Origin: Octopus vulgaris
Taxonomy: Eukaryota
DNA: 64,000 nt
Direction of reading: 5' to 3'
Assembly (NCBI GenBank): GCA_951406725.2
Contig: OX597833.1
Span: 65,100,001 to 65,164,000, forward strand
In this document: piece by piece, positions 1,741-64,000 of the stretch
How the letters are laid out: each line of letters opens with the position of its first letter
How positions within the stretch are numbered: position 1 is the stretch's first letter
Notes under the pieces: model-generated
Told to the model about the DNA's origin: nothing
The model's input: the letters and a program-made list of their open reading frames with translations, nothing else
Database searches by the model: none
Translations under genes and position numbers: made by a program

Positions 1741-1933
1741 AACAGGAAGGTTTACGAAAGTAAACAAAAGACGAAGGCGGGTGGAGTACAAACAAAGAAA
1801 TGTATTAATATAGCGCTCAGAAATAGAAAAAGTCGTTTACGTTTCGAGCCTACGCTCTTAGACAGAAAGATACACAGAAAAAAACAAGGAGAGAAACAAG
1901 GAGAGAACAAAATGCGTGTAGTAGCTAACGATC
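1741..1933 (-). mobile_element. Short Penelope-pLTR-like element with degenerate minimal hammerhead (family H1)
   Basis: Flanked by (TA)n and homologous to 46862-47073 and 11525-11706. The minus strand reads CTGTCTA-A-GAGC-GTAG-GCTC-GAAACGTA. Confidence 0.65.
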
Positions 1934-2120
1934 TATATATATATATATATATATATATATATATATAGATAGATAGATAGATAGATAGATAGATAGATAG
2001 ATAGATAGATAGATAGATAGATAGATAGATAGATAGATAGATAGATAGATAGATAGATAGATAGATAGATAGATAGATAGATAGATAGATAGATAGATAG
2101 ATAGGTAGATAGATAGATAT
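1934..2120. repeat. (TA)n/(TAGA)n microsatellite
   Basis: Direct reading of the sequence. Confidence 0.97.
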
Positions 2121-4194
2121 ATGTACCCGTGAGTAGTCCCTTAATATTATTTTTATATGCAATCTTCTTAACTTCATTGGAGCCACAGCACTGGTCGTGT
2201 AAAACTATGGATGGTTTTTTTTCTGCCACACACGTCTTTTGCCACTTCCCGTACAAAATATTTGAAAATCCTCGAGATGGTCCTAAATGGAACCTTCGAC
2301 TATAGATTTATTGATCATAGCCGATTTAGAACTAAACAACTAAAAAAAGAAAAAGAAAAGGAAAACATAATTATGAAGAATTTAATAGCAAACGTGATGA
2401 GACTGGTTATCTTAATCAACGATCGGAAGTTTCCCGGAGCGCTACGGTCGCCGACAATATTTCAATATTTATGAATATTTAAAACATAATTACAAGAAAC
2501 TTCCCCTTGCCTTTCCCTGCCTTCCTGGATTCCATATCATGGTAAGCGTATGTGTAGACTATATAGAAATGTCGTGCTTCAAAACACTGAAAGTATAATC
2601 CCATGTTTGCGTTTCCAACGGAGCTCCGCCTCATCAGGCGATGTGTGCGATACCTTAATAATGATATCGTAGCACCTGTTCTCTTTAAAAATTCTCGCTT
2701 TGATCAGAATCTATAATTTGTGTAGTAATTACACGGAAGACAAGGAGACTAGATTCTGCGTTGATGTGTCGGTTCTTCATACCAAAATCTCTTTGGTCAT
2801 TAAGCACATAATTTATTTAACTCATCACGTGATAGCAAGTAATACATTGTCAAAATTGGTAGAGCGACGGTCACAAGATTTTGTGGTATTTATTTAATTA
2901 TGGAACTCTATATACCAAGTTCTAAATACGGCGCAGTCAAACATCCTTGATATTCGTCTCTGTGTTCGTGAAACAATGCGCCAAGGGTTCAATCTATTTA
3001 ATTGCTGGAGACAGGCGTTAAATAGTAAAAAATATTGGTGAAACTCAGGCAATATGGTTGTTGTCTAGTACAGATAGATGTGACCGGGTGACACCGTAGT
3101 AGGAGGTTGAGAGGCGGGGTACTATGCTAAGAGAAGTAAAGATGAGCTAGGAGGAAAGAATGACGCGGTAGAAGGACGAGGTGATACTTGGGGGAGCGGT
3201 GTAGCAGCTTATCGAGGGGGAGACCAAAGGCTAAGAGTGAAAGATGGTAGAATACGACCCAAAAACCTTCGGGGTTTTCCCAAACGAGGATTTCCAAAGA
3301 CCTCATCTCTGCTCACTATTCATATATATATATATATATATATATACATTAATACCTCTGTTTCTTGTCATCTTTAAGGTTGTTTTTTTTTATAGTTTTA
3401 ATATTTATAAATATTTTTTAAAAATACATTTTATTATTTTGAAATATTTTAAAATACTTTTTTCACTTTTCGTTTTTCGTTGTTCATTCTTTAATTTCTC
3501 AATTTTTCATTTTGTCAGTTCTCCACGTTTTTCTCTTTGTTATACTATTCTCCTATCTTTCATTCTTAGCCTTCCTAAGGTATTTTTCGATGTTATTATT
3601 ATTATTATTATTATTATTATTATTATTATTATTATTATTATTATTATGATTATTATTATTATTATTAATCTCACAGCCTGGAATCGAAAAATACCTTAGG
3701 AATGAGAACCCAGGTTCGAAATTTCCCCAAGACACCTGATGAGGACAAATATCCGTCAAATGTAATTAATTTAAATAATGTACGTAATCCCTCATGTCTT
3801 AAATATAGAACTGTACTACAAAAAACTGTTCCCATGGATGTTACTTAGATCTTAGAAAGCATTTTTCAAACTGAAAATACCTCATAATTTTATTAACTCT
3901 CTCAAAGCTGAAATATTATAAATTTAGCAGCATCTTAGTACTCCGATTCGTAAAATGTATCATTGACTACCAATCATAAACAATACCCAGAATGAAACGT
4001 CTGACTTTCTGCTACCTGAGGTCTCAAGGTGAGACATATAACAGCTCGTATATAACAAAGCAACGGCATTAATAATAATAATAATAATAACAAAAACAAT
4101 AACAACAGCAACAACAACAATCATAATAATAATATAAATGATTATGATCATCATAATTATCATCATTATTATAGTTATAAGGGTAGTAACAAAG

Positions 4195-4432
4195 ATGACG
4201 ATGATTGATGATAACGATGACGATGACGACGACGACGATGGCGATGATGATGATGATGATGATGATGATGATGATGATGATGATGATGATGATGATGATG
4301 ATGATGATGATGATGATGACGACGACGACGATGATGATGATGATGATGATGACGATGATGATGATGATGATGATGATGACGATGATGATGATGACGATGA
4401 TGATGATGACGACGACGACGACGACGACTATG
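4195..4432. repeat. (GAT/GAC)n microsatellite
   Basis: Direct reading; explains the poly-D, poly-M and poly-I ORFs. Confidence 0.97.
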
Positions 4433-4814
4433 ATATGATAAGTTACTTTATCGAAATAAATTATTTTAATGCGCGAAGTAGGAATACTTCTTCGTTTTTT
4501 GCCAATATTCTCGTATAAGTACATTAGTTACCAAAATTAGTAAACAGTTCATTTCTGCGACATCATCTCCCTCTCTTTATTCCCGTTCTGCCTCCACACA
4601 CACACACATTCTCTCTCTCTCTCTCTCTCTCTCTCTCTCTCTCTCTCTCTCTCTCTCTCTCTTCGTAAAGTTCTCTTCATCGCCTCAGCAAATTCATTAT
4701 TCAACTCCCATCTTGTATGTATTTGCAGACCTTCCCATTACTGCTGTTAGTTTCATCATACGCCGGTATTTCAACTTATCAATGTTTCGCATTGCCCTGT
4801 TATTTCCGTTACTC

Positions 4815-61060: not shown

Positions 61061-61061
61061 C

Positions 61062-61820
61062 AGACCGATAAGGCGAAATGGCGTTCTTCTACATCACGAC
61101 AACGTCCTCACGTGAACAATATGACCAAAGGCGCAATTCAAGAACTCCCATAATCTCTAGACTTAGTGCCGTCAGATTTTCATCAAACAACAAGAATCAA
61201 ACAATCCAGAATCGCCGCCCGTTTGCTCGCTCGACATCGCTCAACACATTGTCACAAACAGCGTTTTCTTTACTGCTTTGTTTACCGGCGATGAAAAATG
61301 GCGCGTTCACGTCAAGATGAAGCAGTGGAAAATGGCTGTCTCGACAAATAGTGACTGTGTGGGTGAATCAAGAACGTTATTCTAGAAAGACCATGTTATG
61401 TATGGTGGGACTGAGAAGGCAAAATTCATTACGAACTGCTTGAGAGCAATCAAACACTCAATGCGGAGCTCTACGTTCAACGAGTGTGCTGACTCAACGA
61501 AGCAATTCAGCAAAAAAGACCGATAAAGCGAAATGGCGTTCTTTTGCATCACGACAATGTCCTCACATGAACACTATGACCAAAGGCGCGATTCAAGAAC
61601 TCCCATACTCTTCAGATTTAGTGTCGTCAGAATATCATCAATTTCGACCGCATCCTACCGCTCTTCGCGTTGTATCGTTCAATAATGACGTAGAATGAAG
61701 GGCGCGGTTCGACGAATTATTTGAGTCAAGATCGGGAGGTTTCTATCGCAGAGGTATGGAAAAACTTATTGAAAGTGTAGACGAAATGCTACACGACATC
61801 GGAGAGTATACTATTAAATA
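61062..61820 (+). pseudogene. Mariner (DD34D) transposase relic, partly duplicated
   Basis: TGDEKW (61285-61302), KTMLC-WD-IHYELL, RNGVLLHHDN, PYSSDLVSSEYHQFR and FYRRGMEKL..GEY, with many stops and frameshifts. Confidence 0.9.
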
Positions 61821-62385
61821 ATTTGTTCTAGTATTTGTGTTTAAAATAAATTTTTAAAAAAAGCTCATGATTATTCCTCAAACCATGCGGATGGGGTCAT
61901 GCTGGAGCAAACCATATTCTGCTTCATTTCTGAAGTCTCGCGTGTTTCACATCGCCACTCTTGTATGTGCTTCGTCCCAGATGTTGCACCATTTGGTGTA
62001 TAAGGGAGTTTGATTCCGCTTCCCTCTTCTGCACCTCATGACTGGCTGTCGGTTCATCCGCTATTATGGAGAGCAGGACGTCTAACTCACAAACATACTG
62101 GAACTAACCTAAAGTTGAGTATATATTTATATATATATATATATATATATATATATATATATATATATATATATATATATATATATATATAAATAGATGA
62201 GTGTATTTTACCTTGTTAACAATTAACACGGATAAATGAATGAATAGTTACCAGGGCAGCAAAAATCTCACAAGTAAAGATGTTGTAACTCCTTGTTTAT
62301 AAAGGTTGACACTTCGTGTTTACGTTGAATATTTGAATAATAGGAATAAAAAGTGGAGTTAACGCAGGTTTAAACAAGTATTTTT

Positions 62386-62472
62386 ACTTTCTACATATGT
62401 TTCAAAAATTCCACTGATACTTATTCAAAAGAATAAAAGGTATAAACAATGCAATCTTCTCTTCGGGAAAGT
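62386..62472 (-). ncRNA. Type I hammerhead ribozyme motif with long stem II (family H4), inside a ~400-bp element in (TA)n (62195-62592)
   Basis: Reads ACTTTC-CCGAAGA-GAAGATTGCATTG..CAGTGGAATTTTT-GAA-ACATATGT-A-GAAAGT: 6-bp stem I, palindromic stem III, GUA site. Confidence 0.75.
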
Positions 62473-64000
62473 GAAAAAACGAAACTTGTCAATACGACAT
62501 TTTAGCTGCTTAAAATAAAGCATATTACTCTACCACTGGTATTTGAGTACTCTTTTTTCCACCTTGTTTCACATTTATGTGTTTACTCCGGTATATATAT
62601 ATATATATATATATATATATATATATATATATATATACATATATATATGTATATTCATGCATATATATATATATATATATATATATACATATCTATACAT
62701 ATGTATATATGCACATATCTTCAATAGGTATTTACCAGCTCATGCCCATGTAATTTGTATATTATCATGAATTATTCCTCAACTCAATATATATATATAT
62801 ATATATATATACACACACACACACGCACACATATATATATATACATATATATGTATATATAAATATGTATATATATGTGTGCGTATGTATGTGTGTGTGC
62901 CCCCTTTCCATTCTATGTTGCTATCGATTTCGCCATGGATTTCTCTCTCAGTTCTCTAATAATGGCTGTATTTTGTCTCCCGCTTGCCTATTAATACAAT
63001 TCTCAAAAGACGTGTCTATACATTTAATTGTTAGAATCTATTATTTAGATGCGTCACTAGGACGAAATCTGTGTAAATGTATCCATTCGCAATTTATAAA
63101 ATAACGACTTAATGTTGTTTTGAATAGATGTTCCTATAAAATTGGGAAGAAACACACACGTATACATACATACATATATGTATGTATATATATACCTGTA
63201 GACCTGTGTTTAAATAAATAAATAAATAGAAATTAATAGAAATCAATTCAGAATGTGTAAGGATGGTGTATATATATATATATATATATATATATATATA
63301 TATATATATATATATATATATATATATATATATATATATTAATGTATATGTATGTATATCTTTTCATATGAATATGCGTACAAGTATACATATATTTACG
63401 AATACCCACTTTTGTTTATATAAGTATGCGTGTATGTCTACGTATATATGTATATGTGTGAGGGCGCAGGAGTGTATATTCACACGTATACATCTGAGCA
63501 TATGTAAACACATACATTGACGAAACCATTATTTCACACATGCCTCTTGAGTGATTCGATTCCATTGAGAATTCAAACATTCTTACAGCAACTTCGAATA
63601 ATGAGAAAATATCTTTGTAAATATCTTATATTATTCACAGACTTATCTCGAGTAGGAATGGTTATGAATATAAACGAGTGCGTGTCAGTTTTTGTTTCTT
63701 CGTTGTTTTATTCTTTCTTTTTTTCTTTTTTATTTATTTATTTATTTATTTATTTATTTATTTATTTATATGTATTTTCCCCCGGTTTCTTTTCCTTTCT
63801 TCCAATTCTTCCCTACATGTGAAATTCACTTGATATGGAAGCATTTAGAGTCTTTAATAGAATTCAACTCAAAACAAAATCTTGACGCTGTTAACTCACT
63901 CATGGCCCCGCGTCAATATTATTTGGCATCAACAAGAAAACACGAAAATACCGAAACACAAAAATTAGAGCCGAAAAAAACAAAAAGAAAAACAAAAACG

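Follow-up and report, generated by a model that had tools for sequence, protein, structure and literature searches.

Minimal type I hammerhead ribozymes have been described in the pseudo-LTRs (pLTRs) of Penelope-like elements (PLEs) of many animals, molluscs included, with a consensus made up of an extra nucleotide after A9, a G10.1-C11.1 pair, a palindromic helix III and a short helix I, mostly as solo copies (Cervera and de la Pena, 2014, PMC4209133). Published numbers of such solo PLE hammerheads run to thousands in a single animal genome. An inverted 5'-truncated copy, a one-sided tail and (TA)n targets are traits of PLEs (Arkhipova et al., 2013, PMC3846280; Craig et al., 2021, PMC8557442); (TA)n is stated as the preferred target of Naiad, the microsatellite bias of Neptune is attributed to its Cys linker, and whether hammerhead cleavage matters for PLE mobility is called unclear (Craig et al., 2021, PMC8557442). 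Non-LTR retrozymes have units of 150-450 bp and are tied to canonical motifs (Cervera and de la Pena, 2020, PMC7229834), and solo retrozyme monomers are on record (Li, Clavereau, Pollet, 2026 preprint, bioRxiv 10.64898/2026.07.22.740005). PLEs have been annotated in octopus in a paper whose main text makes no mention of ribozymes (PMC13282606), and the searchable part of the supplement to PMC4209133 contains no cephalopod term.

The window analysed here is a stretch of 64,000 nucleotides of the Octopus vulgaris genome (OX597833.1), in which an earlier, sequence-only reading had reported about ten type I hammerhead folds from several families unrelated outside the core. A hammerhead motif is present at all ten places; two extra motifs raise the count to about 12, drawn from six or more families, and there is one further H1 fragment (Table 1). 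The helices differ in sequence between families yet pair. The sequence-only reading knew of no characterisation in cephalopods. Hammerhead PLE ends have been published from many animals, molluscs among them (PMC4209133), as has (TA)n targeting (PMC8557442); solo PLE hammerheads in an animal genome are expected, and the unusual aspect is the core variants A6U and U4C.

Table 1. Hammerhead-bearing elements and fragments in the 64-kb window, in order of position.
Feature	Element	Strand	Hammerhead	Details
H1a element	1742..1933	-	1838-1865 (C3..N17)	between TA tracts; U6; broken G8 (G8U)
Sixth H1a copy, decayed 3' part	9278..9406	+		begins at TA tract; absent from the sequence-only reading
H1a element	11520..11704	+	11589-11616	TA on 3' side only; U6 core; helix I 4 bp; GUU triplet
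Extra hammerhead, other family	13855..13888	+		canonical core; helix I 3 bp; descriptor score 13.2; TA 132 nt downstream
Extra element	33708..34434	-	33916-33962	165-nt direct repeats 33708-33872 and 34247-34411 (97%); 23-nt terminal inversion; U3-A8 pair; helix I 6 bp; helix III 5 bp; helix II decayed
H1b element	38544..38740	-	38649-38675	between TA tracts; A6 core; helix I lost
H2 copy a	45081..45263	-	45190-45240 (decayed)	~65-nt 3' extension; G10.1U; broken helix I base
H2 copy b	45262..45377	+	45285-45335	G12A
H3 element, 81 nt	46742..46822	-	46780-46809	between TA tracts; C4 core; 2-bp helix II; near-palindromic helix III
H1a element	46864..47073	-	46967-46994	between TA tracts; best-kept H1 hammerhead; U6; helix I 5 bp; helix II 4 bp; ACGU palindrome; GUA triplet
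H2 element	48951..49066	+	48974-49024	nested in microsatellite spacer of two-part SINE
H1b-type element	52866..53000	-	52961-52987	nested in TA tract of two-part SINE; C4 core; helix I 1 bp
H4 element, 400 nt	62192..62591	-	62392-62466	between TA tracts; C4 core; helix I 6 bp; 22-bp interrupted helix II; helix III a perfect 8-nt palindrome

A plain core pattern gave five matches in the window against 0.52 expected, and none of 100 shuffles reached five. At a score of at least 9, a minimal-hammerhead descriptor, widened after the motifs had already been seen, gave 11 matches against a mean of 1.6 and a maximum of 5 in 40 local dinucleotide shuffles; five of the 11 belong to the ten reported earlier, two are the seemingly genuine extras and four seem due to chance. 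Of the stricter versions, one that lacked the extra nucleotide placed none of the ten motifs above the cut-off and another placed three. An Rfam scan of the window matched no family at gathering score; among the 150 matches listed of 428 there was no hammerhead, only miRNA matches driven by microsatellites. For the descriptor matches at 17914, 50033, 53279 and 62682 and the core-pattern matches at 2611 and 5986 no convincing set of helices can be drawn, and they were set aside as chance or unreadably decayed. A general repeat search was dominated by microsatellites, which make up a quarter of the window. It is extremely improbable, and largely refuted, that the motifs are chance hairpins in SINE-like or MITE-like repeats which lie near TA only on account of this microsatellite content: the silence of Rfam, folding energies that are non-significant on their own (z from -1.87 for H4 to +0.74 over nine segments) and a loose descriptor that at scores of at least 3 finds 104 matches against 85 in shuffles, many of them therefore chance, would agree with it, but the high-score excess, the pairing in six unrelated families, a near-identical published Neptune motif, an ORF link in 11 loci and the TA flanks described below all argue against it.

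The anatomy of the motifs equals the published consensus, which bears out their assignment to the PLE pLTR class of minimal type I hammerheads. Shared with the motifs of PMC4209133 are the extra nucleotide after A9, the G10.1-C11.1 pair, the palindromic helix III and the short helix I, and also GUH triplets including GUU, the U3-A8 variant, opposite-strand pairs and many sequence families per genome, mostly as solo copies. The unpaired nucleotide between A9 and 10.1 and the G10.1-C11.1 pair occur in five of five H1 copies; in H2 the extra base precedes G12, in contrast to the published motifs, the closing pair is C-G in H3 and G-U in H4, and the H4 helix II region, also in contrast to those motifs, spans 56 nt. 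Helix I measures 4-6 bp in five of the ten motifs, is lost or broken in the other five, and differs in sequence among six families yet pairs. In all six families tested, helix III is computed to form no monomer hairpin and a self-duplex of -1.7 to -9.7 kcal/mol. The nearest known relative of H1 is the Neptune pLTR motif of Acropora digitifera, to which its helices II and III are almost letter-identical (PMC4209133).

The implied population of working ribozymes is not supported, as half of the copies are broken. Core and helices I-III are kept in the copies at 11.6, 46.8, 47.0, 49.0 and 62.4 kb; the others carry G8U (1.8 kb), a helix I of 0-1 bp (38.6 and 53.0 kb), G10.1U with a broken helix I base (45.2a) or G12A (45.2b). 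The canonical core CUGANGA...GAAA...UH occurs in H1-38.6, H2-49.0 and the 13.9 kb motif, and only H2-49.0 among the ten combines it with all helices. Deviations from this core are U6 in the three H1a copies, C4 in three, U3 in three, and G8U and G12A once each.

The five H1 copies, previously treated as one family, split into at least two groups: those at 38.6 and 53.0 kb have no BLAST match (E<0.01) to the other three, which do group together and are joined by the sixth copy (76% over 92 nt to the 11.6 kb copy, E 8e-10, BLAST). The H1 copies all stop at one common 3' end, 97-136 nt past N17, with no permutation among them. Some 20-25 nt past N17, five of five also carry a second conserved motif, GAGCG. 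The proposed check for covariation, confined to H1 in the window, was answered in part: 85% of 60 helix cells pair, against 27-46% with the partners slid, and covariation proper is weak, with one pair changed on both sides and a value as high in 34 of 500 shuffles.

For nine of the ten motifs a (TA)>=5 tract lies no more than 250 nt away on each side, which is true of 6.9% of unmasked positions. This agrees with the claim that nearly all units are bounded by (TA)n; the exception is the 11.6 kb copy. Among the descriptor-chosen matches 5/11 have such flanks (P about 5e-4), and among SINE halves, taken as a control, 4/19. Two copies (49.0 and 53.0 kb) are nested in the internal TA/microsatellite tract of a two-part SINE, two of eight two-part SINE copies carrying one, which supports the proposal that (TA)n tracts act as landing sites.

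A search for full-length PLEs with reverse transcriptase (RT) and GIY-YIG domains sharing these ends had been proposed, and none came to light in the window: tblastn with sets of 10 and 124 proteins, a profile of the 124 proteins (best E about 2) and blastx run on six stretches of flanking sequence gave no PLE ORF remnant there, and a peptide from a TA-bounded element (45427-45713) had no relative. Elsewhere, an H1 pattern search matched no viral contig but did match 120 metagenome loci, 96 AT-rich and coral-like and 24 GC-rich; C[TC]GA at positions 3-6, which lie outside the demands of the pattern, was present in 71 of the 96 and in none of the 24. In 11 of the 96 (about eight distinct) a PLE endonuclease ORF ends 86-137 nt upstream on the same strand. 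This ORF matches RT + GIY-YIG proteins, and the Neptune-type Cys linker pattern is present in 60 of its 124 long relatives; the frameshifted peptides of two loci (L007 and L044) went unrecognised by Pfam, and their identity comes from matches to PLE proteins. Such linkage was seen for the H1-type motif, in other animals, and for none of H2, H3 and H4. Outside the ribozyme H1 bears no resemblance to the coral-like loci, so its assignment to Neptune rests on about 30 nt; a likeness of the H1 5' part to a coral-like 3' UTR was rejected, as 51-287 of 300 shuffles scored as high. As no PLE ORF was found in the window, we infer the PLE link of these families within the species.

Very probably, the short repeats are 3' ends (pLTRs) of several endonuclease-bearing PLE families, or short non-autonomous derivatives, inserted into pre-existing (TA)n by the PLE RT and GIY-YIG endonuclease, and the copies are likely no more than the usual debris of a known type of insertion. 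Like insertions of endonuclease-bearing PLEs (PMC8557442, PMC3846280) they include solo pLTRs and a (TA)n preference, and the inverted 5' copy, one-sided tail and partial tandem of such insertions are present in H2 45081-45377, where copies a and b are joined head-to-head with a palindromic junction, and in the 33708-34434 element, about 1.3 units long; unlike those PLEs, the elements here have no ORF. Naiads lack canonical hammerheads and by that criterion these are not Naiad ends. The three H2 copies share one 5' end, so a defined non-autonomous unit fits better than random truncation. Counting against the PLE-end reading are the lack of a PLE ORF remnant in the window, the weak within-family covariation and the absence of (TA)n near any of the 96 coral-like loci. 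Mechanistically, a PLE endonuclease, probably Neptune-type for H1, would nick (TA)n, and reverse transcription from the fixed 3' end of the element, with an early stop or fold-back, would leave 80-400 nt. Since every copy spans the cleavage site, the template would be uncut (or religated) RNA. By analogy with the literature, the ribozyme may need tandem parental transcripts, where it can form a domain-swapped dimer, in order to cut at all, and solo copies would therefore be silent in cis.

The same spanning of the cut site would result from a religated circle, as would be the case if these were dispersed monomers of non-LTR retrozymes, with tandem arrays elsewhere self-cleaving to small circular RNAs that are reinserted by PLE proteins. 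Retrozymes, too, are short and AT-rich, lack an ORF, carry a type I hammerhead and have been proposed to be mobilised by PLE proteins (PMC7229834; 2026 preprint); the likeness extends to unit sizes overlapping the retrozyme range, to the recorded solo monomers and to the length of the 33.7-34.4 kb element. What defines a retrozyme, however, is a tandem array, a canonical motif and a circular RNA, and none of the three was seen in the window or the H1 contigs: there is no tandem of any hammerhead unit and no nearby same-family pair on one strand in the window, the motifs are minimal, the common H1 3' end is unpermuted, and H1 contigs from four runs show skips and no long go-back joint, although contigs drop rare forms and leave this absence unproved. 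We consider the retrozyme origin quite improbable. Among the runs listed with H1, none is on record as RNA. Two that are presumed RNA contain H1 contigs, the summed depth of which peaks more sharply over the core; no conclusion follows, since the depth of contigs is no guide to the ranking of parts.

If PLE ends are the source, is their hammerhead still required to cut? All 56 motifs in Fig. S3 of PMC4209133 begin with CUGA or UUGA, which its descriptor favours, whereas A6U and U4C occur here. A6U looks fixed in one abundant H1 subfamily, H1a: U6 is present in three of three cores, and position 46991 shows no other letter at >=5% in four runs. C4 recurs in three groups (H1-53.0, H3 and H4). 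Among 85 distinct coral-like contexts 31 have it as well, including two with a linked ORF. Reportedly, Lunse et al. 2017 treats PLE hammerhead variants, and A6U and U4C may already be described there.

These variants could have been carried through amplification if the hammerhead were retained because it signals in cis for PLE reverse transcription, in a slowed or non-catalytic form, a role to which the reduced in vitro activity of A6C and U4C (PMC3088659) and the conserved GAGCG would also be suited. Across contigs, however, variation at >=5% within the 28-nt H1 core is confined to N7 (52-77% other letters) and to the CpG of helix III (3-13%), and the invariance of G5, G8, A9, G12-A15.1 and U16.1 with N7 free is the pattern expected of catalysis; U4C also supports viroid infectivity. 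This role is unlikely, and would add to the PLE-end explanation, not replace it. Possible, though doubtful, is the wider proposal that a very abundant TA-targeting non-autonomous PLE family of defined length amplified with an A6U core, and three other groups with U4C. As RNA must be uncut to be copied, retrotransposition would then favour a hammerhead that is slow or serves structure alone. If so, the families would be a natural test of what PLE hammerheads are for, and descriptor-based counts would overlook a large share of animal hammerheads. The window itself offers a dense set of motifs missed by Rfam, direct nesting evidence for (TA)n targeting, and high-copy natural variants that permit a simple test of the role of cleavage in PLE mobility. 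About 14,500 contigs per DNA run map to one H1 copy.

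The hammerhead copies in the window are most likely a population of solo hammerheads from the pseudo-LTRs (pLTRs) of Penelope-like elements (PLEs), and they resemble those reported from many animals, including Lottia and Crassostrea (PMC4209133). Ten motifs had been claimed from sequence alone, five of family H1 (1.8, 11.6, 38.6, 47.0 and 53.0 kb), three of H2 (45.2a, 45.2b and 49.0 kb) and one each of H3 (46.8 kb) and H4 (62.4 kb); each was confirmed in place. A plain core pattern matches the window five times against 0.52 expected. A descriptor modelled on the published minimal hammerhead, and widened once the motifs had been seen (earlier versions recovered 0/10 and 3/10), gives 11 matches at a score of at least 9, compared with a mean of 1.6 and a maximum of 5 in 40 local shuffles. 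These comprise five of the ten motifs, two new convincing hammerheads and four chance-like matches. A check of the window against Rfam gave no match at the gathering score, and folding energies of the motif segments are unremarkable; the predicted H4 fold and the centroid for the 47.0 kb H1 copy nevertheless recover helices I and II and leave the core open.

Coordinates of additional hammerheads and neighbouring repeats in the window
Feature	Position	Basis or remark
New convincing hammerheads	13855-13888; 33916-33962	descriptor
Sixth H1 fragment	9278-9406	BLAST
Two-part SINE-like repeat	8340-8719; 22346-22916; 24612-24985; 32136-32518; 48566-49266; 50353-50787; 52585-53101; 5002-5429	variable microsatellite spacer between halves
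TA-bounded element adjoining H2	45427-45713	287 nt; inverted arms of 58 nt (45525-45582 and 45656-45713, 86%)
Inverted repeat flanking a (TTA)n tract	3560-3820	20-nt repeat; isolated CTGATGA half-core at 3736
Tc1/mariner transposase remnant	10600-11150	Pfam HTH_SB, E 1.7e-6; immediately 5' of the H1 copy at 11.6 kb
Large inverted duplication	25750-27195	arms 664 nt, identity 88%
One interspersed repeat in tandem arrays	28486-29760; 21191-21924	185 nt x 6.8, 98%; 242 nt x 3, 93%
Open frames	35639-35956; 23512-23976	105 and 154 aa

Core and all helices are intact in five of the ten copies (11.6, 46.8, 47.0, 49.0 and 62.4 kb), and only that at 49.0 kb combines all helices with a canonical core. 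Among the others, the 1.8 kb copy carries G8U, those at 38.6 and 53.0 kb have lost helix I, and 45.2a and 45.2b carry G10.1U and G12A, respectively. The grouping of H1 as one family holds in part: helix II, a palindrome reading ACGU and, about 20-25 nt downstream, a GAGCG motif are common to all five full copies, but the family falls into a U6 group (1.8, 9.3, 11.6 and 47.0 kb) and an A6 group (38.6 and 53.0 kb), which give no BLAST match to each other at E<0.01. The GAGCG motif lies 3' of the cleavage-site nucleotide N17 (e.g., 46935-46943) in 5/5 H1 copies and recurs in loose ends that belong to other subfamilies. The motif is a possible competitor for the 3' strand of helix II, but the predicted H1 consensus fold leaves it unused. 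Of 60 cells in the aligned H1 copies, 85% pair, compared with 27-46% when partners are slid. The expected stem covariation is weak within H1 (one pair with both sides changed, and 34/500 shuffles equally high), but across six unrelated families the differing helix I sequences pair. All six helix III segments are predicted to self-pair as duplexes, without a monomer hairpin. Structural support is stronger across families than within H1.

Contigs from four sequencing runs were aligned at 80% likeness to the 47.0 kb copy (46864-47073), a member of the U6 group, H1a, giving 14,475, 14,752, 3,100 and 255 contigs, which are not copy numbers. Summed contig depth is highest at the ribozyme, and the loose ends to either side of it reveal further subfamilies with a common core. 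Within the 28-nt stretch C3-N17, alternative letters make up at least 5% at N7 (52-77% altogether) and at the helix III CpG (3-13% for each base), and nowhere else. N7 is the position of a hammerhead core that is free to vary; no comparable change is seen at G8, its CpG partner. Since position 6 has no other letter in these contigs, A6U looks like a subfamily trait, though A6 subfamilies may simply not align.

TA tracts as landing sites are borne out. (TA)n lies within 250 nt on both sides of 9/10 motifs, compared with 6.9% of unmasked positions. Because the motifs may have been picked by their flanks, the test was rerun on the 11 descriptor-chosen matches, where 5/11 qualify (P about 5e-4); among control SINE halves, 4/19 have TA on both sides. 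In the eight copies of the two-part SINE the spacer is plain microsatellite in five, degenerate in one and holds a hammerhead element in two (48.7 and 52.8 kb), and this nesting is direct evidence of insertion order. The SINE spacer thus serves other elements as a landing site. H1 3' ends lie 97-136 nt beyond N17 in 5/5 copies.

Endonuclease-bearing PLEs are described with inverted 5'-truncated copies, one-sided tails, partial tandems, palindromic junctions and (TA)n targets (PMC8557442; PMC3846280). In the window, the two 45.2 kb H2 copies (45081-45377) stand head-to-head with a palindromic junction. One has about 65 nt of extra 3' sequence, while the other and the 49.0 kb copy end at the same point; all three share a 5' end. 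An element at 33.7-34.4 kb carries a hammerhead between 165-nt direct repeats, with a 23-nt terminal inversion.

The proposed link to PLE termini is seen at some metagenome loci outside the window. An 18-letter H1 pattern (G8 to U16.1) matches at least 120 metagenome loci and no viral contigs. Among the matches listed, positions 3-6, on which the pattern is silent, read CUGA or CCGA in 71/96 AT-rich and 0/24 GC-rich loci. In 11 AT-rich loci out of the 96 listed (about eight distinct once duplicates are merged), the C-terminus of a PLE protein ends 86-137 nt upstream of the motif and on its strand; the other 85 have no such ORF. One linked ORF shares up to 77% identity with proteins of the RT + GIY-YIG family, two matches being named coral proteins, and what we take to be the Neptune-type Cys linker pattern fits 60/124 of its long relatives. 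An Acropora digitifera motif of the H1 family is assigned to a Neptune element in the supplement to PMC4209133. In four coral-like loci (L008, L011, L017 and L069), PLE ORF pieces lie on both strands around the hammerhead, inverted as in H2. Against the link stand, besides the 85 loci without an ORF, the likeness of the 96 listed loci to H1, which ends at the ribozyme, the finding of (TA)n near 0/96 of them, and a search of the window itself that detected no remnant of a PLE ORF. We infer a PLE parent of H1 within the species, and likewise any parent of H2-H4.

The copies were most likely, and in our view with good probability, made by nicking of (TA)n and early-stopping or fold-back reverse transcription. 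The PLE endonuclease would nick (TA)n, and synthesis would begin at the element's 3' end and halt early or fold back, leaving a copy of 80-400 nt. Since every copy spans the cleavage site, the template RNA would have been uncut or religated. In published models the motif cleaves as a dimer (PMC6765202), and only so and weakly (PMC4209133). No two motifs in the window share a helix III close together on one strand (H2a and H2b lie on opposite strands, and H3 and the 47.0 kb H1 copy have different palindromes), so that by analogy the copies would be silent in cis. The alternative reading as retrozymes fails on tandem arrangement, by which non-LTR retrozymes are recognized in the available descriptions (PMC7229834; bioRxiv 10.64898/2026.07.22.740005): no hammerhead unit is arrayed in tandem in the window, and among the joints listed for the contigs of the four runs, which drop rare forms, there is no long go-back joint and thus no H1 tandem or circle was seen.

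The hammerhead population is a real feature of a known kind, and its families are apparently new. Giant squid has 235 Rfam hammerhead_1 matches (PMC6962438), and an O. vulgaris repeat annotation names PLE families, with "ribozyme" absent from its main text (PMC13282606). No description of the hammerhead families of the window was found in the openly accessible cephalopod papers searched, a scope without Repbase/Dfam entries. The sole unusual point is the core variants, because the 56 motifs given in PMC4209133 all start CUGA or UUGA, whereas in the window A6U is characteristic of H1a and U4C of three groups. U4C also occurs in 31/85 distinct coral-like contexts among the matches listed. A6C and U4C are reported as natural variants of lowered activity (PMC3088659).

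The window is AT-rich, with 16,169/64,000 bases masked as simple repeats and 136 (TA)≥5 tracts. The TA-bounded element beside H2, for which no protein relative was found, may be another fold-back insertion. Units of the tandem arrays are without a convincing hammerhead. The two open frames have no Pfam match and presumably resemble LINE remnants. The inverted repeat around (TTA)n could be a PLE-type end targeting a trinucleotide repeat.
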